From Candidatus Dadabacteria bacterium CSP1-2 (lineage in GTDB: Bacteria > Desulfobacterota_D > UBA1144 > Nemesobacterales > CSP1-2), in assembly GCA_001443445.1 (NCBI GenBank), contig LDXN01000008.1:3707-67706 (forward strand): a DNA stretch of 64,000 nt, given 5' to 3'. The notes under the pieces were generated by a model that worked only from the letters and a program-made list of their open reading frames with translations, did not search any database and was not told where the DNA came from. Made by a program: the position numbers and the translations under genes. Shown one piece after another: positions 6,441-62,427 of this stretch (its first letter is position 1; each line of letters starts with the position of its first letter).

Positions 6441-6947
6441 TAAAAGATTTTTTAATAAACTTTCACCTAAATCTCCTGCACAACGATTTTATCAAAATTT
6501 AGATCGACTTGACTTCGCAATCGCTTACAAAGAGATGTGGATCGTGTTAGCAACCGCTTGATTAAAAAATTAAGAGAGTGGCAATGCCCTTCTGAATTCA
6601 TCTTAAAAATCTCAAACTTCATAAGGAATCATCAATAATTGACTTGTTCATACTGGTTACGAATCTCATTTTTATCTTAATACAACTTTAACATAAATTT
6701 AATAATATCTTAATATAAATTGAAATGGTTGTCAAGGATTTTTTATTCGCATTTGCAAAATTTCATCATTCCTATAAGTCTCTTTGGAACACTCAATTAA
6801 GTTGTAAAAGCGAGCTCGTCAAAGCGATTTATAGTCACATTTGACGGCAGAAATGAAAAAAAGGATTCAAAAACCTCGAGCTATATTTACTAACCAAGAT
6901 GATCAGGGGCTGCCTATACTCTATAAATTGGATTTTTAGCATGTTTT

Positions 6948-6967
6948 AAGTATGTCAAAACATACTT
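6948..6967. promoter_or_regulatory. perfect 8-bp inverted repeat AAGTATGT-N4-ACATACTT upstream of dksA; candidate operator
   Basis: Read directly, about 40 nt upstream of the dksA start, in an AT-rich 550-bp spacer. Confidence 0.35.
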
Positions 6968-6992
6968 TTACCATTTACATAATACAACCAAC

Positions 6993-7373
6993 ATGATATA
7001 TATTTATATTATGAATCCTGAAAAACTAGAGTTCTTTAAAGGGATTCTACTTGAAAAAATGAATCTTCTTATCGATACCGCAGGAAAAACGATGAGCGAG
7101 ATGAGCCAGGAAGATGACTCCTTCCCTGACCCCCTAGATCGTGCAATGTCAGAGTCGAGTAGAACAATTGAGCTGAGGAAAAGAGACCGGGAAAGAAAGC
7201 TAATTCAAAAGATTCAAAAAGCAATTCAAAAAATGGAAGACGGCACCTATGGTATATGCGAAGAGTGTGGAGACGAGATCTCTGAAGAAAGGCTTAAAGT
7301 AAGACCAGAGGCGTCACTTTGTATTAAATGTAAAGAAGAGCAAGAAAAGATTGAGAAACAACTTGGGTTGTAG
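6993..7373 (+). CDS. dksA: RNA polymerase-binding transcription factor DksA
   Basis: Coiled-coil tip motif DPLDRA and C4 zinc finger CEECGDEI...CIKC. The true start is probably ATG 7011 (MNPEKLEFF). Confidence 0.85.
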   Translation: MIYIYIMNPEKLEFFKGILLEKMNLLIDTAGKTMSEMSQEDDSFPDPLDRAMSESSRTIELRKRDRERKLIQKIQKAIQKMEDGTYGICEECGDEISEERLKVRPEASLCIKCKEEQEKIEKQLGL

Positions 7374-7385
7374 ATTATTCAATAG

Positions 7386-7850
7386 TTAATTCATACCTCC
7401 AAACACAAAACCTCTAAGAAAATCAGCATCTGATTCTTTAACTATCTTCCATTCACCGTTTATCTTTTCAAACATTATGTTCTCGCTTAGCTGAAAACGG
7501 CTATTATCTTCTTCCAATCTTACATCAACCTTAGTTTTCTGACTCACATTAACCCTTTTATCGGTATTGTAGATATTTCTATCATAATGGGAGACCTTAA
7601 TTTGGTCAAAAAGAGTAACGTTTGAAAGGAAATTCTTTTTTATTTCCTCAATACCTATAACTTTGCCATCCTTTTCTTGTCTATAGTTTGGCGATATACA
7701 AGACATATAAAGGTTGACGTTTTTTGTCTCAAAGGCCTTTTGTCTTTTTGAGAGTAAATCCTCAATTTTATTCCTATCTGAATCAACACAATGGTTGATG
7801 AGAAATGGAATAAAAACTAAAAGGAGAAGGATTAATCGTTTTTCTCTCAT
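7386..7850 (-). CDS. hypothetical secreted protein or lipoprotein
   Basis: 154 aa with an N-terminal signal peptide (LILLLLVFIPFLINHC). Overlaps the bamD stop. Confidence 0.45.
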   Translation of the reverse strand: MREKRLILLLLVFIPFLINHCVDSDRNKIEDLLSKRQKAFETKNVNLYMSCISPNYRQEKDGKVIGIEEIKKNFLSNVTLFDQIKVSHYDRNIYNTDKRVNVSQKTKVDVRLEEDNSRFQLSENIMFEKINGEWKIVKESDADFLRGFVFGGMN

Positions 7851-9937: not shown

Positions 9938-10996
9938 TTACAAATTTAAATTTCGTAATAGCTTCCCCTTGTCTACATTTATTCCTTTTATAAGAGCAGG
10001 ATCTTCTTCAATCTTTCCTTCAGCAATTTGTAAAACGTATGGCAGTATGGCATTAGATAATGAATAAGTTGCAGTCCTTGAAACAAGAGAAGGAATATTC
10101 GTTACGCAGTAGTGGAGCACCCCATCAACGCTATATACGGGTGAATCAAGGTTCGTAGGATGACTTGTCTCCGAACACCCTCCCTGGTCAATTGCCACGT
10201 CCACAAAAACACTACCAGGTTCCATTCTCGAAATCATCTCTCCTGTAATAACCTTTGGTGCTTTTGATCCTGTTACAAGTACAGCGCCTATAACTAAGTC
10301 AGAGTCTCGAAGCTCTTTTTCTATCAATTCAGGGTAAGATGGAATTGTTTTAACCATGCCTTCAAATCTCTCATGAATAAACTCGAGCTTCTTAGGATTT
10401 TTATCTATTACCACAATCTCAGCACCGAGTCCAAGAGCCGAAAGAACAGCGTTGTATCCTACAGTCCCGACTCCGATAACAGTAACCTTCCCCGGTTTTA
10501 CCCCTGGGGCACCGCTTATTAAAACTCCCTTTCCACCACTTGGTCTCTCAAGAAAGCGAATCCCGATTTGTACTGAAAGTCTTCCTGCGATTCTGCTCAT
10601 GGGAGCAAGAAGAGGAAGTGAGCCGTCTGAAAGCTCCACAGTTTCAAAGGCTATAGCCATAACACCAGTTTTTTCAAGCGTTCTTGTAAGCTCGATATTC
10701 GCAGCAAGATGAAGATAAGAAAAAATAATGTGATCACTTCTAATGAGAGGATATTCCCCTGAAAGTGGCTCTTTTACCTTTACAATAAGTTTAGATTTAT
10801 TAAAAATATCCTCTTCGCTTTCAACTATTTCCGCTCCTGCTTTTTTGAACTCCTCATCACTTATACCGCTTCCTATTCCAGCACCCTTTTCTAACAGAAC
10901 GCGATGCCCTCTTTCAACTAATACCCTTGTTGTTTGGGGAGTAACGGCAACTCTATATTCGCGTACCTTTCTTTCTTTAGGAATTCCAATTATCAT
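9938..10996 (-). CDS. ald: alanine dehydrogenase
   Basis: 352 aa. N-terminus IGIPKERKVREYRVAVTP, NAD-binding VIGVGTVGYNA, and C-terminal TATYSLSNAILPYVL typical of Ald. Confidence 0.8.
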   Translation of the reverse strand: MIIGIPKERKVREYRVAVTPQTTRVLVERGHRVLLEKGAGIGSGISDEEFKKAGAEIVESEEDIFNKSKLIVKVKEPLSGEYPLIRSDHIIFSYLHLAANIELTRTLEKTGVMAIAFETVELSDGSLPLLAPMSRIAGRLSVQIGIRFLERPSGGKGVLISGAPGVKPGKVTVIGVGTVGYNAVLSALGLGAEIVVIDKNPKKLEFIHERFEGMVKTIPSYPELIEKELRDSDLVIGAVLVTGSKAPKVITGEMISRMEPGSVFVDVAIDQGGCSETSHPTNLDSPVYSVDGVLHYCVTNIPSLVSRTATYSLSNAILPYVLQIAEGKIEEDPALIKGINVDKGKLLRNLNL

Positions 10997-11173
10997 CGAG
11001 AGTTAGAATAGCATGAGTTTTAGAAGTCTCAACAATTTTGACCGGATAAAGACTGTTGATTAGAATTTATCGTTAGCCAAAGAGAACAAAGAGTTCACAG
11101 ATGTATGAATTTGATTAATCAGCAAACACAGTAGGAGGCGGTTCGCGAACTACAATAAATGCACGGGTATCTT

Positions 11174-11201
11174 GTAGGGGTACGTTGCAACGTGCCCCTA
11201 C
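11174..11201. repeat. REP-like palindrome GTAGGGGTACGTTGCAACGTGCCCCTAC (intergenic, ald-obg)
   Basis: Near-perfect 28-bp palindrome. 27/28 identical to the copy embedded in RAYT copy C at 46550-46577, and both are followed by TATC. Confidence 0.85.
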
Positions 11202-11316
11202 TATCTATCTCGGTGTTTGTATCCGATTAAATTTTCAAAGGCCATAATCAAACCTCTACTCTTTCTCTACGCTCTCTGTGCACTCTGTGGCTAAACTGGA
11301 AATGGTATAACTAACG

Positions 11317-12327
11317 ATGGTCAAATTTGTAGATGAAGCGAAAATCTATGTGAAATCAGGTCGCGGCGGAAAGGGATGTGTGAGTTTCAGGCGCGAGAAA
11401 TTCGTCCCCCGCGGCGGTCCAAACGGAGGGGATGGTGGAAATGGAGGAAGCGTAATACTTATTGCAAGACAAAATATGTCCTCTCTTCTAGATCATCGTT
11501 ATAAGCAGCACTACAAAGCCGAAAACGGAGAGCATGGAAGAGGAAAAGACCAGCACGGGAAAAACGCACCAACGCTTTTAGTTCCTGTTCCCGTTGGAAC
11601 CGTTGTAAAAGACTTTTTTACAGGCGAGATTCTGGGAGACCTTACCGAGGACGGTGATACCCTCGTTGTCGCAAAGGGCGGGCGCGGTGGAAGAGGAAAC
11701 GCAAGATTTGCGACACCAACAAACCGTGCCCCAAGATATGCAGAGCCTGGTGAGGAAGCAGAAGAAAGAACCCTGCTTCTCGAGTTGAAACTCCTTGCTG
11801 ATGTAGGAATCATAGGTTTTCCTAACGCAGGAAAGTCAACGCTGATATCTAGAATCTCGGCAGCACGTCCCAAAATCGCTGACTATCCTTTTACCACGCT
11901 TATTCCCAATCTGGGTGTTGTAAGCTATAACGAAGGAAAAACATTCGTTGTTGCTGATATTCCAGGACTTATTAAGGGGGCACACGAAGGAACTGGTCTT
12001 GGAATAAAATTCCTAAGACACATAGAACGCACTAAGGTTCTTATCCATCTACTTGATTTGTCTCCGTTAACAGAGAGAGACCCAATAGAAGATTATCACC
12101 AGATGAATGGGGAACTTAAGGCATACAGCGCCGACCTTATTAAAAAACCACAAATTATCGCGCCAAATAAGATTGACATAACAGAAGCGAGAGAAAAACT
12201 TAAGGAAATCAAGACCTATTTCAACAAACTAGGGATTGAAGTATTTCCGATTTCCTCAGCAACTGGAGAAGGTTTACAGGTGCTAATCAAAGAAGTAGGA
12301 AAGAGATTAGAAATACTTAGAAATTAA
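11317..12327 (+). CDS. obg: GTPase Obg
   Basis: Obg fold N-terminus ([17 protein letters not shown]...[14 protein letters not shown]) and G domain ([10 protein letters not shown]). Confidence 0.9.
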
Positions 12328-12334
12328 CGCAGAA

Positions 12335-12973
12335 TCAACCACAGGCAACTATCTCTTTAAGTGAGCTATGTCTAAAAATTTCTTCTTCTAATACGTCTTT
12401 GGCAATTCTTTTTGGATTTTCTCTATCGAGGTGCCATTTTAATGGATTGTTTTGAATATATTCTCTGATTTTTTGTAATTCATCTTCATTACGGATTATA
12501 TGTTCATAATAATTACGTTGCCAGAATTTACGATGAAACGAGGGTAGTATATTGTGTTTTACCCCACGAATGTATTCGTTTGTGGTCATTGTTTTAAACC
12601 ATTGAATAATTTTACGTAGGGGCGAACCTATGTGTTCGCCCTGTAAATCCATGTCTTTGCCATTGTTATTTGGGCAGACACGCAGGTCTGCCCCAACATT
12701 TGTTTCAACAATTGTTATAATGCCATGAAAATGGTTGGGCATAATGATATATTCATCAATTTTTATATTTGTGAATTTGTTGGGTAATACCACCCACCAT
12801 TTTTCAATAATCTGCCCAGCAACATACAATTCCACTTTGTCATTTTTAATCTCGCCTAATAAACATTCTCTATTATGCGTGCAAATCGTTATAAAATACA
12901 CCCCCGGTTGTGAATAATCGTATTCTTTCAATCGTATTGACCTTCTATGATGAACATCAGGATTGTATTTCAT
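12335..12973 (-). CDS. REP-associated tyrosine transposase (RAYT, IS200-like HuH), copy A, intact frame
   Basis: 212 aa. N-terminal HRRSIRLKEYDYSQPGVYFIT, HuH motif MPNHFHGII, catalytic Tyr region WQRNYYEH. Carries an in-frame REP-like insert (12616-12694). Confidence 0.8.
   Translation of the reverse strand: MKYNPDVHHRRSIRLKEYDYSQPGVYFITICTHNRECLLGEIKNDKVELYVAGQIIEKWWVVLPNKFTNIKIDEYIIMPNHFHGIITIVETNVGADLRVCPNNNGKDMDLQGEHIGSPLRKIIQWFKTMTTNEYIRGVKHNILPSFHRKFWQRNYYEHIIRNEDELQKIREYIQNNPLKWHLDRENPKRIAKDVLEEEIFRHSSLKEIVACG
12616..12694. repeat. two REP-like hairpins inside the RAYT-A ORF (GTAGGGGCGAACCTATGTGTTCGCCC ... GGGCAGACACGCAGGTCTGCCCC)
   Basis: Palindromes read directly. The first unit is identical, as reverse complement, to the intergenic unit at 55041-55066. 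The insert length preserves the frame. Confidence 0.8.
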
Positions 12974-13098
12974 ACCGACCTTGCCATTTCTAACCTAAAC
13001 TCACACACAGACCAATATATCTCGTCTTGTTCCTGTTGTGTTAGACCAAGAATATCAAACACTACTTCCCCAGCGCTCAGCGGTTGGGTGGCGCAACC

Positions 13099-13320
13099 CT
13101 ACTTTGCAGATATGCTTTGTAATGTTCGCGCCCGAAGCCCAATAATCGTAATGCCTACAACTTCTTTTTTCTTCTCGTCGTAGCGAACGATAATGCCCTC
13201 GCCGATATCCGTTCCAACTGCTGGGCGGGGCTCGCCGACAGAAATGTAAAGCACATCCGCCTCCTCATCGTATTCCCAGCTTAGCGCTGGTGTACCCTCA
13301 AGGATTTTTAACGCTTCCAT
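13099..13320 (-). CDS. DUF2283-family small protein
   Basis: 73 aa. WEYDEEADVLYISVGEP matches the DUF2283 core. The ORF is visibly more GC-rich than its flanks. Confidence 0.55.
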   Translation of the reverse strand: MEALKILEGTPALSWEYDEEADVLYISVGEPRPAVGTDIGEGIIVRYDEKKKEVVGITIIGLRARTLQSISAK

Positions 13321-13321
13321 A

Positions 13322-13932
13322 TCACTTCCCTACATATACCTCGTGTTTAAAAATTTCATCTTCCAATGCATCTGTGGCAATTTTCTCTGGATTTTCTCTA
13401 TCTAAATGCCATCTTTGTGGATTATTTTGAATATATTCCCTGATTTTGTTTAATTCATCTTCTTTGCGGATAACGTGTTCATAATAATTTCGTTGCCAAA
13501 ATTTACCAACTATATCAATCCTATTTTCTTTTATGTACTTTAACCAATCATGTACGCATAGTGATTTAAACATTCCAATAATTTCACCAATTGTAGGGGC
13601 GGTCTTGCACCCGCCCTATTATTTGGGGCAATTGTAGGTGCAGGCCTTGCGCCTGCCCTATTATTTGGGGCAACCGCAAGGGTTGCCCCTACAAATATTA
13701 TCCCATGAATATGATTCGGCATAATGATGAACTCGTCTAGTTGTATATTGTCAAATCTGCTTGTTATTTCATGCCATTGCCGATTGACCATCTGCTTTAG
13801 TTGTGGATATTGTTCAAAATACAATTCTTTATTATCTGTACAAATCGTTATAAAATATGCCCCTGGCTGTGAATAATCGTATTCTTTCAATCGTATTGAC
13901 CTTCTATGATGAACATCAGGATAGTATTTCAT
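13322..13932 (-). pseudogene. RAYT copy B, split by a frameshift inside a REP-like insert (ORFs 13540-13932 and 13322-13573)
   Basis: The N-terminal ORF has HRRSIRLKEYDYSQPGAYFIT and MPNHIHGII and then reads through the REP units as VGATLAVAPNNRAGARP. The C-terminal ORF has WQRNYYEH and NNPQRWHLDRENP. The two frames overlap at 13540-13573. Confidence 0.75.
13593..13692. repeat. REP-like cluster of three hairpin units (with a tandem duplication) inside RAYT copy B
   Basis: GTAGGGGCGGTCTTGCACCCGCCC, GCAGGCCTTGCGCCTGC and GGGCAACCGCAAGGGTTGCCCCTAC. The motif CTATTATTTGGGGCAA is duplicated. Confidence 0.8.
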
Positions 13933-13942
13933 ACCGATTACA

Positions 13943-15076
13943 TTAAGTGTTACGATCTGATAGATAATCTTCTAAAGATTTATAAGTTTTTACAATCTTA
14001 AGTCCTTTAATTTCTAACCTTTTCTTTACCTCTTTTCGATTACGATCAACAAGTATTATCTCGCTTTTCTGAGGTAACATTGAAAGTAAAAGAAACGCAT
14101 TAGAATCCTCTGGTCTAAAACTGTATCCTATAATAACAAGTTCTTCAGTTTCTGACATAACTTTAATTGCAGATTGCCAAATTTCGTACATTTCTTTTCT
14201 TTCAAATGGCTTAATAAAAGAGGGCAACATACATCCTGGCCCATAGCCTCCTACATAACCCGGGTTTATTTTATCTGGATGTCTATCCAGTAATCCTTCA
14301 AAATGTAATTGATTACTTTCTCTATTGTCCATTACAATTACAATATAATCTCTACCACGCAGTTTCTCGATTGATCTAAGGCTAGGTGGTTCCCAATTAA
14401 TAGAACCATGCATCTTATGAATTCTTAATATGGAACACTTATTTCTTTTTTCTAAGCATTTCTTGTCCTCATCCCGTTCAAATTCTGAAACACCCACATA
14501 CCCATCCAAAGGAGACCAAATACCAGCACTAAGCAATGCTTTTTCTAAAACCAAATCGTAGTTAAATGTGATGACTTTATCACTTGAGTTGATAATTTTT
14601 GAAAACTTTTTAGCCAAGATATTTCCTTTAAGTCTAACAAAAACTAGGTAGAAATAGGTTTGAATAATATTTCTTATCCTTTCTAGTTCTGTTTTACTTG
14701 TAAACCACCAAGGTATCGCTGAATGAGGTTGAATATTAGATCCTTTTTTCTCAAACCGAATATTTGGACCATTTAGATGCAGGTCAATTAAAGTAATGAG
14801 ATATTCTAAGTTCTCTTTTATCTCGGTGGATATTTTATCAGAATCATACTTTTCAAATCGAGAAGTTGCTTCCTTTTCTAATCTTATTATGAAGTTATTT
14901 AAATTATTAAACCAATTAGCTCTCAACTCTTTATCTTCAGGATTTAAATCTTTTCTACTTTTTTCTCGTTTGTACGCTCTTTCTATACAACACCATAGTT
15001 CTTTCATCAAAGGACCATCAGCCACGGCCTTAGAAAATCCAGCACCTAACAAAAAGGTTCTGTTTATATTTCCCAT
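13943..15076 (-). CDS. standalone SIR2-like (SIR2_2 family) protein; candidate NAD-depleting defence effector
   Basis: 377 aa. N-terminal FLLGAGFSKA, ITFNYDLVLEKAL (TNYD-like), KMHGSINW (HGS motif) and C-terminal VIIGYSFRPEDSN, which match the SIR2_2 signature blocks recalled from memory. The ORF is AT-rich relative to its neighbours. Confidence 0.65.
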   Translation of the reverse strand: MGNINRTFLLGAGFSKAVADGPLMKELWCCIERAYKREKSRKDLNPEDKELRANWFNNLNNFIIRLEKEATSRFEKYDSDKISTEIKENLEYLITLIDLHLNGPNIRFEKKGSNIQPHSAIPWWFTSKTELERIRNIIQTYFYLVFVRLKGNILAKKFSKIINSSDKVITFNYDLVLEKALLSAGIWSPLDGYVGVSEFERDEDKKCLEKRNKCSILRIHKMHGSINWEPPSLRSIEKLRGRDYIVIVMDNRESNQLHFEGLLDRHPDKINPGYVGGYGPGCMLPSFIKPFERKEMYEIWQSAIKVMSETEELVIIGYSFRPEDSNAFLLLSMLPQKSEIILVDRNRKEVKKRLEIKGLKIVKTYKSLEDYLSDRNT

Positions 15077-15205
15077 CTACACACCAAATTGTCCAGTTTT
15101 ATGTTAATAGGGAAGTCCTCAAGTAGCAATGGTAAATCTTTGTGTTTAGTGAAGGGAGTTAAGAAAAGGTGGCAAATACGTTATCAAACCAAACCTAAAG
15201 TTAAA

Positions 15206-16069
15206 CTACACCCTTAGTCGGGCTTTTGCGATTTGGATTTGTTTTTGCCCCATATCCCTTGATCTCAATCTTTCCCATATAAAAACGCTCGTTATAGAGA
15301 CAAAGAGAATAATCGTTCCAACAGCGTTTATCTCTGGGGTCATTCCTCTTCGGAGCATTGCCCAAATCTGCATAGGAAGCGTGTTATCCCTTCCAGTGAG
15401 GAATATCGTCACGATGATTTCATCGAAAGATAAAGTAAATGCAAGTAAAGCTGCGCCAAGAAGAGCAGTTGTTATATTCGGAAGAACTACGCTGAAAAAT
15501 GCTCTCCATCTATTTGCCCCAAGGTCCATTGCCGCAAGAACCATAGATTTATCCATCGCTTTTAGACGTGCTAAAACCTCTAAATAAACTACTGGTATAC
15601 AGAATGTGATGTGTCCTATTGCCACTGTAATCAAAGAAAGATCAAACTTTGCAAACGAGCAAAAAAGAAGAAGTGCAACACCTGTTATGACACCTGGGAA
15701 AGTTATCGGCCATGTGGAAACCCTATGAAAAACGCCTTTTAGTGGGAATATGAACTCATCCATTGCAAGAGCAAGAAGGGTTCCCACAATCAGAGAAAAA
15801 ACAGTTGCAGCAATTCCCACTTTAATGCTGTTAAAGACTGCCTGCATCAGATCGTTATTATTTAGAAACTCCTTATACCAATAAAAAGTAAATTTCTTAA
15901 ATGGAAAATAACTGAAAGGGGCTTCGTTAAATGAAAATATAACTACGATAATAATGGGAGAATAAAGAACTAGGAAGAAGATAAACACATAGAGCCTGAG
16001 TATAAAATCTCCAGCACTAAATGATTTTGCTAGTTCGTGTGTTTTTTTAATCCTTAATTCTTCCTGCAT
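15206..16069 (-). CDS. potC: ABC transporter permease (PotC/PotI-like, polyamine)
   Basis: 287 aa, 6 TM, with an EAA-like loop (AAMDLGANRWRAFFSVVLPN). Confidence 0.8.
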   Translation of the reverse strand: MQEELRIKKTHELAKSFSAGDFILRLYVFIFFLVLYSPIIIVVIFSFNEAPFSYFPFKKFTFYWYKEFLNNNDLMQAVFNSIKVGIAATVFSLIVGTLLALAMDEFIFPLKGVFHRVSTWPITFPGVITGVALLLFCSFAKFDLSLITVAIGHITFCIPVVYLEVLARLKAMDKSMVLAAMDLGANRWRAFFSVVLPNITTALLGAALLAFTLSFDEIIVTIFLTGRDNTLPMQIWAMLRRGMTPEINAVGTIILFVSITSVFIWERLRSRDMGQKQIQIAKARLRV

Positions 16070-16101
16070 GATATTTATCTATGCCAAAATGTAATTTCAA
16101 T

Positions 16102-16206
16102 GTAGGAGCGCCATCCCTTCGACCGTTCGATCCTTCGATAAACTCAGGGCTCACGGCTCAGGAGACATGCTTGGCGCGACAGGTCGCGGCTAGAAGCCGC
16201 TCCTAC
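16102..16206. repeat. REP-like/MITE-like element with GTAGGAGCG...CGCTCCTAC termini in the potB-potC spacer
   Basis: 9-bp inverted termini about 90 bp apart, with an internal hairpin GCGCGACAGGTCGCGG. Confidence 0.7.
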
Positions 16207-16208
16207 CT

Positions 16209-17063
16209 TTATATCTCCATACCGCTATAACGTGCGGCAATCTTCTCGCTTATATAAAGTATGAAGGCCACGAGAAGTATCAGGACAAGACCATTTGCCG
16301 CTCCAAGTGTCCATTGAAACGCGCTTCCAAAAAGACTCCAAACGATATTTCCAATCATGATTCCCTCAGGACCTCCGACCAATAGGGCCGCGACAAAGTC
16401 ACCTACACTTAGAGCAAACACCGAGGTAATTCCTGCTATAACACCTGGAAGGGTCAGAGGAAATATAACGCGCCAGAAGGTTGTAAACCTTCCCGCTCCG
16501 AGATCATATGAAGCCTGAAGAAATTCGTCGGGGATTTTTTCAAGCATTGCATACACTGGGATGATTAAAAAGGCTATAAAAGCCATAGTAAGCACTAAAA
16601 TTAGGGCAAACTTGCTGTAAAGGAGAATACTAAGAGGTTCATCAATTACCCCGATAAAGAGTAAAAATTGGTTTATTACCCCGTTTGTCCCTAGAACTAT
16701 CTTCCATGCATATGCCCTTACAAGGTAACTAATCCAGAGTTGCATGATTATAAGAAGCAAAAGCAAATTTTTATATTTTTTAAGTCTATATGCAATGAAA
16801 AAGGCAACCGGATAACCTAGTATAAGTGCGAGTATTGAGACAGTAACCCCGATACCAACTGTTTTAAGGATAGTTCCATAGTAAAGAGGAGTTGTAAAAA
16901 TCTTTACGAAGTTCTTGAGTGTAAATTCCTTGATAATCGTTAGGTATTCTGTATCCCAGAACGAGTAGATAAGAAGCGAGCTGTATGCGAAGATCTCAAG
17001 AATAGTAATCCATAATATTGGAACTATAATTAGGACGATAAACTCGAGCCTTCTTCCCTTCAT
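16209..17063 (-). CDS. potB: ABC transporter permease (PotB/PotH-like)
   Basis: 284 aa, multi-TM, EAA loop (ASYDLGAGRFTTFWRVIFPLTLPG). Confidence 0.8.
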   Translation of the reverse strand: MKGRRLEFIVLIIVPILWITILEIFAYSSLLIYSFWDTEYLTIIKEFTLKNFVKIFTTPLYYGTILKTVGIGVTVSILALILGYPVAFFIAYRLKKYKNLLLLLIIMQLWISYLVRAYAWKIVLGTNGVINQFLLFIGVIDEPLSILLYSKFALILVLTMAFIAFLIIPVYAMLEKIPDEFLQASYDLGAGRFTTFWRVIFPLTLPGVIAGITSVFALSVGDFVAALLVGGPEGIMIGNIVWSLFGSAFQWTLGAANGLVLILLVAFILYISEKIAARYSGMEI

Positions 17064-17085
17064 GCCATTTAACTATAAAAATATT

Positions 17086-17167
17086 GTAGGGGCAACCCAT
17101 GCCTGTGGCGAGCCCAGTCGAGCCACGGTTGCCCAAAAGATAGGGCGGGTGCAAGACCCGCCCCTGC
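17086..17167. repeat. composite REP-like element (nested palindromes) in the potD-potB spacer
   Basis: GTAGGGGCAACC...GGTTGCCC encloses GTGGCGAGCCCAGTCGAGCCAC and is followed by GGGCGGGTGCAAGACCCGCCCCT. The last unit is identical to 62122-62144. Confidence 0.8.
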
Positions 17168-17220
17168 GGTTAACAACGCAATGACACTAAACCTTAAATA
17201 AAAAGAGACTTAGACCTAAT

Positions 17221-18312
17221 CTACTTTGCAGTCTTGAATGCCTGACGGACCTCGTTGTATTCGCCTTCATTTTGTATCGGCTGCCACCACTTGATCTTCT
17301 TTGAGGCCTCAACTATGTAGTTCGGGTCGTCAATATGTGTGAATGCCTTCTCGTCAGGTGTCATAAGTGGAGCAGCTTTTGGGTTAACTATGAAGTAGTT
17401 AGTTACCTTGAAGACTGCATACTGTCCCTCTGGGCTGATGGCAAAATTAATCCACTTCTCTGCCATGTCCTTATTCTTAGTTCCTTTTACAACCATCCAC
17501 TGGTCTATCCATCCCGAAGTACCTGGATCAGGGATGCACTCTGCCACAGGGATACCCTGCTTTTTAAGATCAAGGGTTATTATTGGCCAAGAGATTGAAG
17601 CTACAACCTCCTTGTTTGCAATAAGATTTGTAAGCTCACCGGCTGTTGACCAAAATGCCCTTATCTGCGGCCTCCACTGAATAAGAAGCTTCTTTGCCTC
17701 TTCAAGCTTCGCTTTATCCATGGTATAAGGGTCAGTACCAAGGAGGATCCCTGCCTGGAATACGGCTGTATTATCCTCACCAGGAACTGAGAGCTTCCCT
17801 TTATATTTCGGATCCTTGAAGATATCCCATGGGGGACAACTCGTAAAAACATCTGTGCGATAGGTTACTGGGTCTGGCCCCCAGGTGTAGTTTACGCCAT
17901 AGACCTGCCCATCCTTCTTGTTGTAATCCAGCTTTCTAAAGAACTCGAAGATATCATTGTAGTTGGGAACGTTTTTGAGGTCTATAGGCTGAACTAGGTC
18001 AGAGTCAATCATACGCTTTGGCAAGTTGCTTGAAAGTGCGACAAGGTCGTAGGAAGCGGCCCCACCTGCCTTTACCTTGGCGAAAAACTCATCCATGCCC
18101 CCAACGTATGTTCCCTTTACCTCAGCACCGTACTTTTCTAAAAACACCTTTGTGAAGGACTCATCTGTATAGCCCTCCCACACAAGGGCACTTAGCGTGA
18201 CTTTGGCAGCCTTTGAGGTCCCCGTCACAAAAAGTCCCACCAATAGCAAGGCTCCAATGAATAAAGCAGCGCCTGCTACTATCTGCTTCCTAAAATTTCC
18301 CTTCTTCTTCAT
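17221..18312 (-). CDS. potD: periplasmic polyamine-binding protein (PotD/PotF-like)
   Basis: 363 aa with a signal peptide and solute-binding family 1 architecture. Confidence 0.8.
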   Translation of the reverse strand: MKKKGNFRKQIVAGAALFIGALLLVGLFVTGTSKAAKVTLSALVWEGYTDESFTKVFLEKYGAEVKGTYVGGMDEFFAKVKAGGAASYDLVALSSNLPKRMIDSDLVQPIDLKNVPNYNDIFEFFRKLDYNKKDGQVYGVNYTWGPDPVTYRTDVFTSCPPWDIFKDPKYKGKLSVPGEDNTAVFQAGILLGTDPYTMDKAKLEEAKKLLIQWRPQIRAFWSTAGELTNLIANKEVVASISWPIITLDLKKQGIPVAECIPDPGTSGWIDQWMVVKGTKNKDMAEKWINFAISPEGQYAVFKVTNYFIVNPKAAPLMTPDEKAFTHIDDPNYIVEASKKIKWWQPIQNEGEYNEVRQAFKTAK

Positions 18313-18338
18313 GTTTCCTTACCTCCTTGATTAGGGAT

Positions 18339-19505
18339 TTAATTTTTTAAAACTATTGCATCCTCTATTTTCCAACAGAAATAAAGAGAATCTCCAATTG
18401 CAAGTTTTTGAAGCAGGGCATCACCCCCTCGCGCCTCAGCTTTTACCTCAAGACCGTTCCCTAAAGTAATTATGTAATCAACCAGAGAGCCTTCGTAGAT
18501 GGTTTCAACGAGTTTTCCCGGAATACAATTTAAATCGTTTGTTCCTTCAAGGTCTCTAAACAAAAATACCCTTTCAGGTCTAATGCCTACCGTTATGCTA
18601 TCGCTAACGTTTACCCTTTCCTTTGTTTTTACAAGAACCTCGCCAACGCCTTCAATCTGTACGATTGCCCTATTTCCTTCTGATCGTATTGCCTTTCCAT
18701 CAAGGAAATTCATCTCTCCTATAAATTCAGCAGCAAAACGTGTAGCAGGATTCTCGTATATTTCCATAGGCGTTCCAATCTGTACTATTTTCCCCTTGTC
18801 CAGAATAAGGATTCTGTCTGAAATGCTTAAAGCCTCCCCCTGGTCGTGGGTTACGTAGATGAAGGTTGAACCTATTCTCTCATGAAGGCTCTTGAGCTCA
18901 ATGAGAAGATGCTGTCTGATTTTTAGGTCAAGCGCGCTTAAAGGCTCATCAAGGAGAAGAACTTCAGGTTCTTTAATTAAAGCCCTTGCAAGCGCAACAC
19001 GCTGCTTCATTCCTCCAGAAAGGTGATGAGGCTCGCTCTTCTCCCACTGTTCAAGCTTCATAAGCCTAAGCATGTTCTTAACCTTTTCCTTAACAACCTC
19101 CTTTTTAACACTGTCAACCTTAAGACCATAGGAAATGTTGCCAAAAACATCCATGTGTGGAAAAAGCGCATAGTTTTGAAAAACCGTGTTCACATTTTTT
19201 CTCTTGTGCGGTGGTATACCATTTACTCGATTACCAAATATGTAAACGTCACCCTCTTCAGGCTCTTCAAACCCACCTAAGATCTTTAAGATTGTGGTTT
19301 TCCCACTACCCGATGGTCCAAGAAAGGAAAAAAGCTCACCCTTCTTTACTTCAAATGAGACGTTGTCAAGGGCAATGAAATCACCGTATCTTTTTGTGAC
19401 GTTCTCAAATACGATTGCTGGCTTCTCAACAGAGGGAAATACCTCCTTGCTTTCTCTTTGCGAATTTGCTTCTTCTTTTATAGCTAGCAATCTTTCTTGA
19501 CTCAT
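18339..19505 (-). CDS. potA: polyamine ABC transporter ATP-binding protein
   Basis: Walker A GPSGSGKTT, signature LSGGMKQRVALARAL, Walker B LLLDEPLSALD, and a TOBE-like C-terminal domain. Confidence 0.9.
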   Translation of the reverse strand: MSQERLLAIKEEANSQRESKEVFPSVEKPAIVFENVTKRYGDFIALDNVSFEVKKGELFSFLGPSGSGKTTILKILGGFEEPEEGDVYIFGNRVNGIPPHKRKNVNTVFQNYALFPHMDVFGNISYGLKVDSVKKEVVKEKVKNMLRLMKLEQWEKSEPHHLSGGMKQRVALARALIKEPEVLLLDEPLSALDLKIRQHLLIELKSLHERIGSTFIYVTHDQGEALSISDRILILDKGKIVQIGTPMEIYENPATRFAAEFIGEMNFLDGKAIRSEGNRAIVQIEGVGEVLVKTKERVNVSDSITVGIRPERVFLFRDLEGTNDLNCIPGKLVETIYEGSLVDYIITLGNGLEVKAEARGGDALLQKLAIGDSLYFCWKIEDAIVLKN

Positions 19506-27009: not shown

Positions 27010-27163
27010 AACTTGAATTTACAATACTATAGTCTTATTTACAATATAAAATATAAAGACTAGATTCGATCACTATAAGTCTCCCATGCTAATATCTTAT
27101 GCTAATATTTGACAAAGGTAAGTTATTCACCTATATTTTGTAGTTTATTACATAAAAGAGTTG

Positions 27164-45161: not shown

Positions 45162-45560
45162 CTACTTTTTAAAAACCCTTTTTACAAACCGGTCCTCATC
45201 AAGCTCCGAAATTAGATAGCCAATTTCATATTGATTACCTGGATAACAATAAAGCCTTATTCCCTGAGGTGTAATCAAAAACTTACCCTCCTTTTTTGTG
45301 CCATCGGGAAGCTTCACTTCATAAACCGTAAATCCCACAGTGCCTCCGCCAATATTCACAATCTTTCTTTCTTCTCTTAGTATTCTCACGCCTTCTGCTA
45401 TATCCCAAACCTTTGGATATATCTGACCTTTAACTTCTAGCTTCATATCAGTGTTATATTTAGTTTTCCGATCATGCCTGCTTGACGGGACAAGAATGTC
45501 TCGTCTATCCTGATTATTATGCACGGATAGGCGGGATTTTCGAATCCCGCCAGCCAACAA
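45162..45560 (-). CDS. hypothetical protein; probable real start at the internal MKLEVKG
   Basis: The N-terminal 36 codons of the ORF overlap hairpin repeats, so they are unlikely to be coding. Confidence 0.35.
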   Translation of the reverse strand: MLAGGIRKSRLSVHNNQDRRDILVPSSRHDRKTKYNTDMKLEVKGQIYPKVWDIAEGVRILREERKIVNIGGGTVGFTVYEVKLPDGTKKEGKFLITPQGIRLYCYPGNQYEIGYLISELDEDRFVKRVFKK

Positions 45561-45580
45561 TGCAGGACTCGAAAGTCCAA
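45527..45580. repeat. hairpin family C units (ATAGGCGGGATTTTCGAATCCCGCC and CAGGACTCGAAAGTCC)
   Basis: Relatives of GCGGGACTTTCCAGTCCCGC, seen at 51.28 and 52.10 kb. Confidence 0.7.
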
Positions 45581-45763
45581 CCTATCTAGTTTCATAAGAG
45601 TCCTCGATATAATTTTATTGTAACCCGAAGTTTAGAGCTATTTCTCGCATCTTATATTTCTCATCGTACATTTTGTTTGTAGTAGAGAGAATTCAATGCA
45701 CCATATACCTACGCCAAGGCGATCTGCTTACTTTCTTTAATACATAAATTCTAATGAGAACAC

Positions 45764-46213
45764 TCAAATCACAAAAAATCTCTTGAAAACTTCAACCCTA
45801 GAAATCATACCTACACAGGTTAGGAGTAAGTCCAGCTTTTTATTTCGTTCATACACAAACCGCGCTTTTAATTCTCCTCCACAATACTGGCAATTTGATT
45901 CTTCAGCCCATTTGTCACACTTCTCACAATACTCACCCTTTTCGTTATACCAGGTAAATAGGGAATAAACTAACTCATTTAATCCTCTTTTACCCAAAGA
46001 ATCAGACCAATCACTAAGAGCCTCTTTTATACCTTTTCGGAATCTCTGCGGGACTTCAGTCAGATCACCCGAATAAATTTCTTCTTTATCCACATAAATC
46101 CTAAAGAAAAAGTCCATCTTCTTACTTAATCCGTGATTCGTGTATTGTGGATTGTGGATCGTTTTTTGTGAACCGAATCGTTCGACTGAGCTCACGACGA
46201 AGTCACGAAACAC
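45764..46213 (-). CDS. hypothetical zinc-ribbon protein (CxxC...CxxC); probable start at the internal MDFFFR
   Basis: CEKCDKW...CQYCGG. The upstream part of the ORF overlaps the heptamer repeat array. Confidence 0.4.
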   Translation of the reverse strand: MFRDFVVSSVERFGSQKTIHNPQYTNHGLSKKMDFFFRIYVDKEEIYSGDLTEVPQRFRKGIKEALSDWSDSLGKRGLNELVYSLFTWYNEKGEYCEKCDKWAEESNCQYCGGELKARFVYERNKKLDLLLTCVGMISRVEVFKRFFVI

Positions 46214-46335: not shown

Positions 46336-46854
46336 TCATCTTTCGCTGAACCTTCTTGAGTCATAGTCTTTTAGTGTTTTACCTAAGATTTGTGGATTAT
46401 TTTGAATATATTCCCTGATTTTGTTTAATCCATCTTCATTACGAATTATATGTTCATAATAGTTACGCTGCCATAATGGAATTCCTGGTGTTTGATGAAT
46501 ATCATTAATTAGTATTGAATTGGAAACGGGTCTGCCAAATTGTTCAAATGTAGGGGCACGTTGCAACGTGCCCCTACTATCATTGTTAATAACAATAATA
46601 ATTCCGTGAAAATGGTTGGGCATTACAATATACTCATCCAATATCAAATTTCTTCGCAAGTCAAATGTTTTTAGCCATTCTGTTTTAACAATTTCGCCTA
46701 ATTGGTTTAATACTATTTCCCCACCTACTACATCACCAAAAACACATTCTCCTTTTTGTGTACATACCGTTATAAAATATGCCCCTGGCTGTGAATAATC
46801 GTATTCTTTCAATCGAACCGACCTTCTATGATGAATATCAGGATTGTATTTCAT
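46336..46854 (-). CDS. RAYT copy C, with an in-frame REP-like insert and a divergent/shortened C-terminus
   Basis: HRRSVRLKEYDYSQPGAYFIT, MPNHFHGII, WQRNYYEH. The insert is translated as DSRGTLQRAPTF. Confidence 0.75.
   Translation of the reverse strand: MKYNPDIHHRRSVRLKEYDYSQPGAYFITVCTQKGECVFGDVVGGEIVLNQLGEIVKTEWLKTFDLRRNLILDEYIVMPNHFHGIIIVINNDSRGTLQRAPTFEQFGRPVSNSILINDIHQTPGIPLWQRNYYEHIIRNEDGLNKIREYIQNNPQILGKTLKDYDSRRFSER
46550..46577. repeat. REP-like palindrome GTAGGGGCACGTTGCAACGTGCCCCTAC inside RAYT copy C
   Basis: 27/28 identical to the intergenic copy at 11174-11201. Confidence 0.85.
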
Positions 46855-61885: not shown

Positions 61886-61948
61886 AGAGTATAAAAAATG
61901 CCATACAATCCTGAAAAACAACTAGACGTAGTATTCGACTGAAAGAAT

Positions 61949-62427
61949 ATGATTATTCAGAGCCAGGCATATTTTATAACGAGTTGCACTCATAATAGAG
62001 AATTGTATTTTGAACAATACCCACAACTAAAGCAAATTGTAAATCTACAATGGCAAAAAATACCAGTCAGATATGCCAATATACAATTAGTAGGGGCAAC
62101 CCTTGCGGTTGCCCAAAAGAATGGGCGGGTGCAAGACCCGCCCCTACAATTGGGGAAATCATTGGAACGTTTAAATCACTGTGCGTACATGATTGGTTAA
62201 AATACATAAAAGAAAACAGGATTAATACGGTTGGTAAATTCTGGCAACGTAATTATTATGAACACATTATCCGCAAAGAAGAACCGTTCAAACGTACACG
62301 TGAATATATTCTAACCAATCCCTTACGCTGGCATTTGGACAGAGAAAATCCCTATCGGAAAGGCGAAGATGATTTTGATAGATGGCTTGAGAGCCAATTC
62401 AAAGATGGAAGGGTCTCTCAATTTTAA
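61949..62427 (+). pseudogene. RAYT copy D: 5-prime truncated, HuH region deleted, frameshifted within a REP-like insert
   Basis: ORF1 ...AYFITSCTHNRELYFEQYPQLKQ... jumps from ANIQL straight into the REP translation VGATLAV. ORF2 has WQRNYYEH and NPLRWHLDRENP. No HuH motif remains. Confidence 0.7.
62090..62147. repeat. REP-like pair (GTAGGGGCAACCCTTGCGGTTGCCC ... GGGCGGGTGCAAGACCCGCCCCTAC) inside RAYT copy D
   Basis: Units shared with 17086-17167 and 13593-13692. Confidence 0.8.

Follow-up and report, generated by a model that had tools for sequence, protein, structure and literature searches.

The segment at positions 12335–15205 of the window (the whole 64-kb stretch of DNA analysed here, from an uncultured Candidatus Dadabacteria population of aquifer (groundwater) metagenomes) is probably one allele of a strain-variable defence-gene slot that lies between obg and potC and has been remodelled by recombination. 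Contigs encoding an identical Obg or PotC protein present three alternative contents at this one site, one of them with a restriction-like module, and the junctions carry relic sequences. The initial annotation's proposal of a hotspot at which accessory, defence-type cargo turns over stepwise is therefore supported; its further suggestion that RAYT loci act as landing pads is not, as discussed below.

Organization and composition of the locus

Five ORFs, every one on the minus strand, occupy the interval: RAYT1, DUF2283, RAYT2 (in two pieces) and a SIR2-like gene. Intergenic gaps are 7, 125, 1, 10 and 129 nt in order from obg to potC. The features referred to throughout are:

11317–12327, plus strand: obg (GTPase), left flank (Pfam GTP1_OBG, 214.9 bits)
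12335–12973, minus strand: RAYT1, intact, 212 aa (Pfam Y1_Tnp, 27.8 bits)
12616–12694, minus strand: in-frame REP pair within RAYT1 (GTAG-headed palindrome and fold z-score)
12974–13061, minus strand: relic of a type IIG restriction-methylase gene, last ~30 codons (alignment and nhmmer profile)
13099–13320, minus strand: orphan DUF2283, antitoxin-like, 73 aa (Pfam DUF2283, 40.4 bits, cut-off 23)
13322–13932, minus strand: RAYT2, frameshifted paralogue of RAYT1 (direct repeats with RAYT1)
13322–13573 and 13540–13932, minus strand: the two RAYT2 pieces, 83 aa and 130 aa (ORF list)
13591–13697, minus strand: intragenic REP array of RAYT2 (42-nt tandem unit, DNA fold)
13943–15076, minus strand: stand-alone SIR2_2 protein, 377 aa (Pfam SIR2_2, 33.5 bits, cut-off 24.5)
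15077–15205, minus strand: spacer between potC and the cargo (blastn and alignment breakpoints)
15206–16069, minus strand: potC, last permease gene of a PotABCD-type ABC operon, right flank (Pfam BPD_transp_1)

Coordinates and families of these co-oriented ORFs between obg and the pot operon are as initially annotated; obg and RAYT1 are convergent, with their stop codons facing each other across the 7-nt gap. The impression of a GC-rich DUF2283 and an AT-rich SIR2 gene also held when computed per ORF. Relative to the 53 other ORFs of the window (mean GC 0.400, sd 0.028; mean GC3 0.345, sd 0.044), DUF2283 has a GC of 0.495 (z +3.4) and a GC3 of 0.50 (z +3.5), and SIR2 a GC of 0.323 (z −2.8) and a GC3 of 0.243 (z −2.3). 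SIR2 homologues are AT-rich even where the GC of the host locus is 0.48–0.53; low GC is characteristic of the family and cannot serve as a clock. The gene is also found at the orthologous site in a sister species (contig L151) and, therefore, is not a very recent arrival. As for the two flanks, both taken at the outset for housekeeping loci, obg is conserved, but the pot side cannot firmly be called housekeeping: no ORF of the window deviates more in GC3 than the pot binding-protein gene (z +3.9), and the operon has shrunk to relics in one sister species.

Alternative contents between obg and potC

Variant A, the arrangement of the window, consists of SIR2, RAYT2 and DUF2283 and was found in ~15 records. 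Variant B combines DUF4258 and two DUF2283 genes with an HKD+SNF2 helicase, which is DrmD-like (PADLOC C3a139, 3e-52), and with a type IIG RE-MTase-like gene, which has a match at 8e-54. Variant C contains DUF5677, fused to the start of RAYT1. Neither DUF5677 nor the orphan DUF2283 has a PADLOC match or a known defence role. Variants B (L013, L019, L024) and C (L026, L020) are represented by three and two metagenome contigs, respectively, some of them short, and assembly across repeats, the RAYT copies included, can produce chimeras. An identical PotC protein flanks all three variants, and a single sample, 3300025167, holds both A and B (L002, L024).

The slot measures 1.0–9 kb. Alignment of A and B places the breakpoints at 15092 and 13321, and the segment that varies between them is exactly RAYT2 plus SIR2; for variant C, the breakpoints are at ~15146 and 12997. 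The spacer next to potC is accordingly common to A and B up to 15092 and shared in part with C up to ~15146. On the other side, the order alaDH–obg is syntenic across all Dadabacteria relatives; synteny stops directly after obg in L034 and L037, and the order of genes past obg is not kept in more distant Dadabacteria. A conserved gene order with uniform composition, the pattern that would have spoken against the initial annotation, was not observed.

This pattern is that of the core defence hotspots described in Pseudomonas aeruginosa (cDHS, PMC10250203) and in the E. coli pan-genome (PMC10121019), as the portions of those reports compared here present them: a fixed position, conserved bounding genes and a content that varies between strains and includes recognisable defence systems, at a site with no integrase or tRNA. 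In our case, the bounding proteins, Obg or PotC, are identical around A, B and C, the recognisable systems are the type IIG-like and HKD-SNF2/DrmD-like genes of variant B, no tRNA or Rfam element was found near the slot and a scan of the ORFs between 11317 and 19505 gave no integrase match. Within the same limits of comparison, this slot differs in being very small, in belonging to an uncultured phylum seen through metagenome contigs and not isolates, in being anchored by a RAYT gene and in having cassette boundaries marked by RAYT paralogues and a type IIG tail. As a defence hotspot it is genuine, though of a fairly ordinary kind, and it extends a pattern known from cultured Proteobacteria, defence hotspots between core genes, to a natural population of uncultured Dadabacteria.

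Relics at the junctions

Upstream of RAYT1 lies a relic of ~90 nt (VFDILGLTQ...ARSV*), ending in a stop codon that shares bases with the RAYT1 start codon (GTATGA). Variant B (L013) has an intact type IIG gene of 1263 aa, whose 3′ end aligns with this relic, and so does the in-frame C-terminus of DUF5677 in variant C (L026). An nhmmer profile recovers the tail (E = 1.6e-22) once per locus and twice in L013, where it is duplicated around a toxin–antitoxin (TA) cassette; in L010, it precedes a second SIR2 paralogue. In the window, the SIR2 ATG is immediately preceded by GTGTGTAG, a match to the end of the same tail. These relics are traces of earlier occupants, whose order they may record, and we infer, therefore, that the slot has been remodelled stepwise, by insertion or deletion.

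In variant B, and only there, the DUF2283 gene that is an orphan in the window follows a DUF4258/DUF2283′ pair (L013, 7122–7349 with 6913–7125). It resembles the predicted toxin–antitoxin pairs of this type in being a 73-aa DUF2283 domain ORF that stands beside such a pair, and it differs in being an orphan, only 34% identical to the antitoxin-position paralogue DUF2283′. The DUF4258 partner gene is absent from the 64-kb window, and the orphan itself is missing from variant C and from L151. It is probably a leftover of a DUF4258/DUF2283 module.

No significant hairpin or REP was found in the spacer 12974–13098 (fold z −0.05), no hairpin in the spacer 15077–15205 (fold z +2.1), and no direct repeats resembling target-site duplications at the junctions, by repeat scan and junction alignments. 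The locus is also different from an integron-like cassette array, which has an IntI integrase and structured attC sites at its cassette boundaries: the element repeated at the boundaries here, the type IIG tail, is derived from coding sequence and has no secondary structure. The island had been described as REP-marked; the REP hairpins do not flank it, being contained instead within both RAYT ORFs.

RAYT genes and their intragenic REPs

RAYT1 scores above the Pfam Y1_Tnp cut-off of 23 and below the curated cut-off of NCBIfam REP_Tyr_transpos (63 bits; cut-off 80), and its translation displays an HUH motif (MPNHFHG) and a Tyr motif (FWQRNYYEH). RAYT1, abutting obg, is common to all three variants and to two sister species (L033, L151); it is the fixed anchor of the slot. 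One shared 2-nt deletion inactivates it in L004, L016–L020 and L026, and all three cargo types occur on this haplotype. Its REP pair (DNA fold z −3.6) includes a GTAG-headed palindrome at 12616–12627, and the translation of the pair, which lies between the HUH and Tyr motifs, reads ...VGADLRVCP...GEHIGSPL...; these peptide motifs recur, in variable copy number, in 105 homologues.

RAYT2 is 84–92% identical to RAYT1 in direct repeats at both ends, with homology beginning just 5 nt before the ATG. In the window allele, it is a pseudogene: a single-C deletion in a C-run (ACCCGCCCC to ACCGCCCC, ~13601–13603) shifts the frame by −1. Intact alleles of 203 aa exist in L002 and L004, and L011 bears a second, independent frameshift. 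The deletion falls inside the REP array, which also contains GTAG-headed palindromes (DNA fold z −4.7); the gene was inactivated by a −1 slip within its own intragenic REP. The array belongs to the REP family of the potD–potB spacer, whose REP pair is 88–95% complementary to the RAYT2 REPs and where the 42-nt unit is also polymorphic; GTAGGGGCRRCC has 8 matches against 0.43 expected.

Judged from sequence, the window RAYTs belong to subclass 2.4 of RAYT/TnpA_REP, for which in-frame intragenic REPs have been described (Quentin et al. 2018, PMC6006769) and which is equivalent to RAYT group 4 (Bertels et al. 2017, PMC5581495). They share with it the HUH/Y1 core, GTAG-headed genomic REPs, the intragenic REPs and a scatter over many phyla. 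What differs here is the number of copies (at least four in 64 kb, at 12335, 13322, 46336 and ~61920, most of them decaying), the lack of REPs directly flanking RAYT1 or RAYT2, and the arrangement of two tandem copies around a cargo gene, recombining with each other. The flanking REPs or REPINs of classical RAYTs are absent at this locus, where the spacer upstream of RAYT1 has no significant hairpin, the 3′ end of RAYT1 is 7 nt from obg and RAYT2 abuts both DUF2283 and SIR2, and four loci in 64 kb are unlike the domesticated RAYTs of Bertels groups 2/3, which are single copy per genome.

Recombination or RAYT activity

No REP hairpins occur at the cargo junctions and all cargo types are found on the broken-RAYT1 haplotype; turnover is thus best explained by homologous recombination. 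Exchange would take place between co-occurring strains through the conserved flanks, and crossovers may also fall within short repeated "handles", for which the RAYT paralogues and the ~100-nt 3′ tail of a type IIG gene would serve. RAYT-catalysed transposition of cargo would not be needed. Two contigs suggest that the role of the RAYTs is passive, with paralogues supplying homology: L013 has a chimeric RAYT, RAYT2-like at its 5′ end and RAYT1-like at its 3′ end, and L151 has a single RAYT with a SIR2–RAYT2-type 5′ junction and a RAYT1-type body, the outcome expected of a crossover between the direct repeats (D2). The L013 chimera, like the L010 arrangement mentioned above, is one observation. 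Read in this way, the locus may be a concrete case of RAYT paralogues adding genome plasticity as recombination substrates rather than enzymes.

Could the RAYTs be more active than that? As landing pads, the HUH/Y1 enzymes of RAYT1/RAYT2 would cleave REP-like hairpins by their own gene and integrate single-stranded cargo, and defence genes would accumulate there. Every cargo block does end right upstream of a RAYT start (SIR2 at RAYT2, the type IIG tail or DUF5677 at the RAYT1 ATG, SIR2 at the RAYT of L151), the window has an unbroken RAYT1, the population carries polymorphic GTAG-headed REPs that match in family, and an unrelated Ignavibacteria homologue of SIR2 (L059) is also followed by a Y1 gene. 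We nevertheless regard this explanation as distinctly unlikely, considering the bare junctions, the cargo turnover on a frameshifted RAYT1 and the two independent breaks of RAYT2. The two further RAYT copies of the window, between or downstream of housekeeping genes or beside genes without assigned function, have no recognisable defence cargo either, and a Y1 neighbour was seen at only 2 of ~80 distant SIR2_2 loci, i.e., there is no conserved SIR2–RAYT pairing. The RAYT literature compared here contains no RAYT-mediated mobilisation of protein-coding cargo, and, according to PMC6006769, there is no formal evidence of autonomous movement by tnpAREP genes. A related idea, that RAYT2 and SIR2 (13322–15091) form a composite IS200/IS605-type transposon inserted as a unit with SIR2 as a passenger, would account for the exact A/B segment, for two co-oriented genes 10 nt apart and for SIR2 followed by a Y1 gene in L059 and L151. 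It is highly improbable: neither end has the subterminal hairpins of IS200/IS605 elements, RAYT2 stops 1 nt from DUF2283 and its homology to RAYT1 sets in only 5 nt ahead of the ATG, the window has no second SIR2 copy, L151 is an orthologous locus and not an independent insertion, and SIR2 homologues elsewhere have no Y1 neighbour.

A bolder form of the recombination reading is that subclass-2.4 RAYTs, possibly together with short conserved gene tails like that of the type IIG gene, are portable handles that define cargo + RAYT cassettes, so that multi-copy RAYTs would structure how defence genes pass between strains and between loci, SIR2 being a new single-gene NADase immune system spread in this manner. 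We consider it unlikely at present. In its strongest version, the RAYT enzyme would nick cassette boundaries and thereby stimulate exchange.

The SIR2 protein

The SIR2 gene is a plausible stand-alone defence gene encoding a predicted NADase, according to its sequence and structural model. The AlphaFold2 model has a pLDDT of 90.7, and the closest solved fold, by Foldseek and HMM searches, is the SIR2 of SIR2–HerA antiphage complexes (PDB profile matches 8w9l, 8yhx and 8j4u), with a TM-score of 0.46–0.54 against 0.27–0.31 for deacetylase sirtuins. With SIR2–HerA (Nezha; PDB 8w9l, 8wld, 8sub, 8j4u) it shares the Rossmann-type SIR2 core, the GAGxS, N-x-D and H-G-S motifs and a similar size (~360–400 aa), whereas identity is only 12–17% and the TM-score only ~0.45–0.54, the helical insertion is distinct and HerA is missing: no HerA gene was found in the window or beside the SIR2 homologues examined. 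Ten positions are invariant in 37 homologues (G11, A12, G13, S15, N172, Y173, D174, H223, G224 and S225). The fold, the Gly-rich NAD loop, the N-x-D motif and the catalytic His of defence-associated SIR2 NADases are thus present, but a full-length match to a curated model is absent: PADLOC SIR2 models match 60–75 residues, mostly within residues ~155–230, and NCBIfam SIR2_antiphage gives 18.6 bits (cut-off 500).

It is reasonable to hypothesize that the protein would hydrolyse NAD+ upon an infection trigger and so abort phage replication, with the hypervariable helical insertion (aa ~41–160) as a putative regulatory or sensing part. Alternatively, SIR2 would have an accessory role, as an NAD-dependent deacylase, ADP-ribosyltransferase or regulator, and the slot would be a general accessory-gene hotspot. 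The SIR2 defence systems compared here (SIR2–HerA, SPARSA, Thoeris ThsA, DSR1/2, AVAST5) have a partner (HerA, pAgo, ThsB) or a fused sensor (SLOG, STAND, the large DSR C-terminal domain), and the window SIR2 has neither; this, the partial model matches, the occurrence of homologues as single genes among metabolic ones and the absence of defence annotation in variant C speak for a non-immune role. We still hold such a role to be rather unlikely, given that variant B fills the slot with a clear restriction-type module and a TA pair and that fold and HMM matches point to the antiphage SIR2 and not to deacetylase sirtuins. Patchy spread, foreign AT-rich composition and deep allelic divergence centred on one surface domain are, moreover, typical of immune genes.

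The defence reading draws on the wider family as well. It is sparse and patchily distributed (182 matches among 5.8 billion proteins), its members being lone genes of 350–390 aa inserted among housekeeping or metabolic genes of GC-richer hosts. This stand-alone SIR2_2 family of ~370 aa, with its hypervariable helical domain, is a candidate for a NADase defence system made up of one gene; two alleles at one locus are 60–63% identical in amino acid sequence, and the helical insertion is their most divergent part.

Gene Content and Composition of the Slot

The region between obg and potC, the last permease gene of a pot-type ABC operon (12335–15205, hereafter the slot), is a fresh example of a known feature, the core-gene-flanked defence hotspot. 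The initial annotation described five co-oriented minus-strand ORFs here, with a GC-rich DUF2283 ORF and an AT-rich SIR2-like ORF, and both descriptions are borne out by ORF coordinates and per-ORF composition. The family names are backed by Pfam and NCBIfam matches; the NCBIfam match of the REP-associated tyrosine transposase (RAYT), at 63 bits, is the only one under its curated cut-off (80).

Genes of the slot and its flanks
11317–12327, plus strand: obg, left flank
12335–12973, minus strand: RAYT1, 212 aa
13099–13320, minus strand: DUF2283 ORF, 73 aa
13322–13573, minus strand: C-terminal piece of RAYT2, the frameshifted paralogue, 83 aa
13540–13932, minus strand: N-terminal piece of RAYT2, 130 aa
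13943–15076, minus strand: SIR2-like ORF, 377 aa
15206–19505, minus strand: ABC operon of a PotA-like ATPase, a solute-binding protein and two permeases, the last permease gene being the flank

Scored against 53 other window ORFs, DUF2283 has a GC of 0.495 (z +3.4) and a GC3 of 0.50 (z +3.5), and SIR2 a GC of 0.323 (z −2.8) and a GC3 of 0.243 (z −2.3). A promoter and terminator scan of 12200–16200 gave chance-level counts (15 vs. 14.1 and 4 vs. 2.7). The window's strongest compositional outlier is the solute-binding-protein gene (17221–18312; GC 0.464, GC3 0.516, z +3.9), which may itself be a replacement or acquisition.

Alternative Contents of the Slot

Exact-protein look-ups recovered the same locus on numerous metagenome contigs from aquifers and sediments, as well as in the MAG GCA_036750755.1, and a species-level scan with Obg placed the lineage in Candidatus Dadabacteria. 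Synteny on the alaDH–obg side is kept in all relatives. Past obg, the order differs in two other Dadabacteria (L034 and L037, Obg 81–85% identity), where a small membrane protein, NUDIX, trpC and trpD follow; these and other post-obg genes of distant Dadabacteria are absent from the window. A RAYT1 orthologue follows obg in two sister species (L033 and L151, Obg 90–92% identical), which makes the 3′ side of obg a breakpoint in synteny where this clade carries a RAYT.

Slot content also differs within the population: contigs with identical Obg or PotC proteins carry three different contents. The variants are read from metagenome contigs, a main caveat here; variant A, the window arrangement, is found in ~15 records, variant B in three contigs (L013, L019, L024) and variant C in two (L026, L020). 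Sample 3300025167 holds both A (L002) and B (L024). Variant C has a lone DUF5677 gene, the stop codon of which overlaps the start of RAYT1, and variant B has five genes ahead of RAYT.

Genes of variant B
HKD(PLD) and SNF2 helicase protein, 1050 aa: PADLOC C3a139 match (3e-52), DrmD-like
Type IIG restriction-methyltransferase-like protein, 1263 aa: match at 8e-54, also resembling DrmMI and PglX
DUF4258 protein
DUF2283 paralogue (DUF2283′)
The same 73-aa DUF2283 protein as in the window

PADLOC gave no match for the RAYTs, DUF2283, DUF4258 or DUF5677. The breakpoints between A and B are sharp, at 15092 (16 nt upstream of the SIR2 ATG) and 13321 (the DUF2283 start codon); those of variant C lie at ~15146 and 12997.

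The junctions also carry relics. The 125 nt that separate DUF2283 from RAYT1 hold the decayed 3′ end of a type IIG gene, its last ~30 codons (VFDILGLTQ...ARSV*, 12974–13061), with the stop codon overlapping the RAYT1 ATG. A search of the window for this tail returned a single copy (12964–13061), so we rejected a dispersed repeat and regard the tail as a local relic. It is fused in frame to the DUF5677 C-terminus in variant C, occurs twice in variant B, on either side of the TA cassette, and precedes a second SIR2 paralogue in contig L010. The 8 nt preceding the window SIR2 ATG, GTGTGTAG, match its end. Such relics at slot junctions make a type IIG gene abutting RAYT1 look like an earlier state, and later cargos would have taken its place piece by piece. 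The initial annotation had read the slot as a hotspot of stepwise acquisition, and the three variants and the junction relics support that reading with direct population evidence.

L010 (2298–2743) presents a fourth arrangement, with the second SIR2 paralogue (P0004-like) standing after DUF2283 and the tail relic, where RAYT1 would be; as a single sighting on a 2.7-kb contig, it may be an assembly chimera. In L013 (8655–8715), a REP doublet is read in frame within the 1263-aa type IIG restriction-methylase ORF (peptide NVGATLAVAQDIGQAQGLPLQ), which stays unbroken.

The window DUF2283 is a bona fide DUF2283 domain and an orphan there. In variant B it comes after the DUF4258 and DUF2283′ pair, sharing just 34% identity with DUF2283′; neither variant C nor L151 has it. 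A GC3 of 0.46–0.50, unlike that of any neighbour, fits a separate origin.

A Predicted Stand-Alone Immune NADase

The SIR2 gene is a member of a sparse family (182 matches) of 350–390-aa SIR2_2 proteins encoded singly, with an invariant Gly-rich loop G11-A12-G13-x-S15, N172-Y173-D174 and H223-G224-S225. Its AlphaFold model is confident (pLDDT 90.7), and among solved structures it comes closest to SIR2 subunits from SIR2-HerA antiphage complexes (TM 0.46–0.54 vs. ~0.3 for deacetylase sirtuins). Neither HerA nor another partner is found nearby, and none is conserved beside homologues. The RAYT subclass in the slot is already known; this stand-alone SIR2 family is uncharacterised.

Homologues are AT-rich (GC ~0.35) even in loci of 0.48–0.53 GC, which makes low GC a trait of the family, whose gene moves horizontally. 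At this position the population and the sister species hold two deeply divergent alleles (60–63% aa identity), with divergence centred on a helical insertion (aa 41–160). Together with the restriction-type alternative cargo, all these features support a predicted immune NADase role. Scanning viral contigs with the SIR2 alignment returned only distant, partial SIR2_2 relatives (24–31% identity), so there is no sign of a phage-borne family. Elsewhere in the window, a 154-aa ORF with no Pfam match on record (7386–7850), between a YfiO/BamD-like TPR gene and dksA, has a GC as low as that of SIR2 (0.320, z −2.85).

RAYTs as Probable Passive Homology

RAYT1 and RAYT2 have ends that are 84–92% identical. 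In the middle they differ, each with GTAG-headed REP hairpins that form a pair or an array and are translated in frame (DNA fold z −3.6 and −4.7, respectively). The REP-encoded peptides VGADLRVCP and GEHxGSPL recur, in 1 to ~10 copies, in 105 homologues of many phyla. We do not claim novelty for these REPs, as in-frame intragenic REPs are a published hallmark of TnpA_REP subclass 2.4 (PMC6006769), equivalent to RAYT group 4 (PMC5581495).

RAYT copies are undergoing decay. The RAYT2 frameshift in the window is a single-C deletion inside an intragenic REP; a distinct 1-nt deletion affects this region in L011, and the gene is intact in other contigs. A 2-nt deletion in RAYT1 is shared by L004, L016–L020 and L026, a haplotype on which all three cargo variants (A, B and C) occur. 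RAYT genes also recombine: the RAYT of L013 is chimeric, RAYT2-like at its 5′ end and RAYT1-like at its 3′ end, and the sister species L151 has one RAYT that joins the SIR2–RAYT2 junction to a RAYT1 body, as would be expected from a crossover between the direct repeats 12865–12978 and 13824–13937.

The suggestion that RAYT loci act as active landing pads for cargo is not supported. No hairpins were found in the junction spacers (fold z −0.05 and +2.1), an Rfam scan of 10500–18500 at E ≤ 0.1 gave no match, and the tRNA search found a single tRNA-Met, at 27163, hence no tRNA-linked integration site; this is evidence against RAYT-catalysed cargo capture. Taken with the recombinants, it leads us to regard the RAYTs mainly as passive stretches of homology. 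A conserved SIR2–RAYT two-gene system was rejected, as a tblastn of three Y1 proteins against 86 SIR2 loci (513 kb) found, besides the same population, only L059 and L072. Among the papers listed by a literature search on defence hotspots, none mentions RAYT.

The window has two more degraded RAYT copies, neither of them beside recognisable defence cargo: a 172-aa ORF without the normal C-terminus (46336–46854) and a frameshifted copy that lost its HUH segment (about 61920–62427). Each closely follows, in the same orientation, a housekeeping gene, DsbH-like for the first copy and of the metallo-beta-lactamase fold for the second. Directly downstream of the first copy are two ORFs without Pfam match (45162–46213; 132 aa, and 149 aa with CxxC pairs).

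In L151 (GCA_050735395.1, 1–5089; Obg 91.7% identical), only short potD and potC relics are left of the pot operon, a GC-rich (0.52) luciferase-like monooxygenase gene adjoins SIR2, and the single RAYT lacks its ATG. The potC–potB spacer of the window has a 22-nt inverted repeat (16094–16115/16193–16214) with a GTAGGAGCGCC-type head, enclosing 77 nt (fold z only −1.5); it may be another kind of REP or a “double-foot” element. In the potD–potB spacer (window 17064–17220; L011 15748–15922; L023 8874–9006), the number of REP copies varies within the population, with spacer lengths of 133/134, 157 and 175 nt. The longest, 175 nt, carries one additional 42-nt REP unit, a period equal to the RAYT2 internal tandem unit; in the window form, the loop of the second hairpin contains a 24-nt insert.
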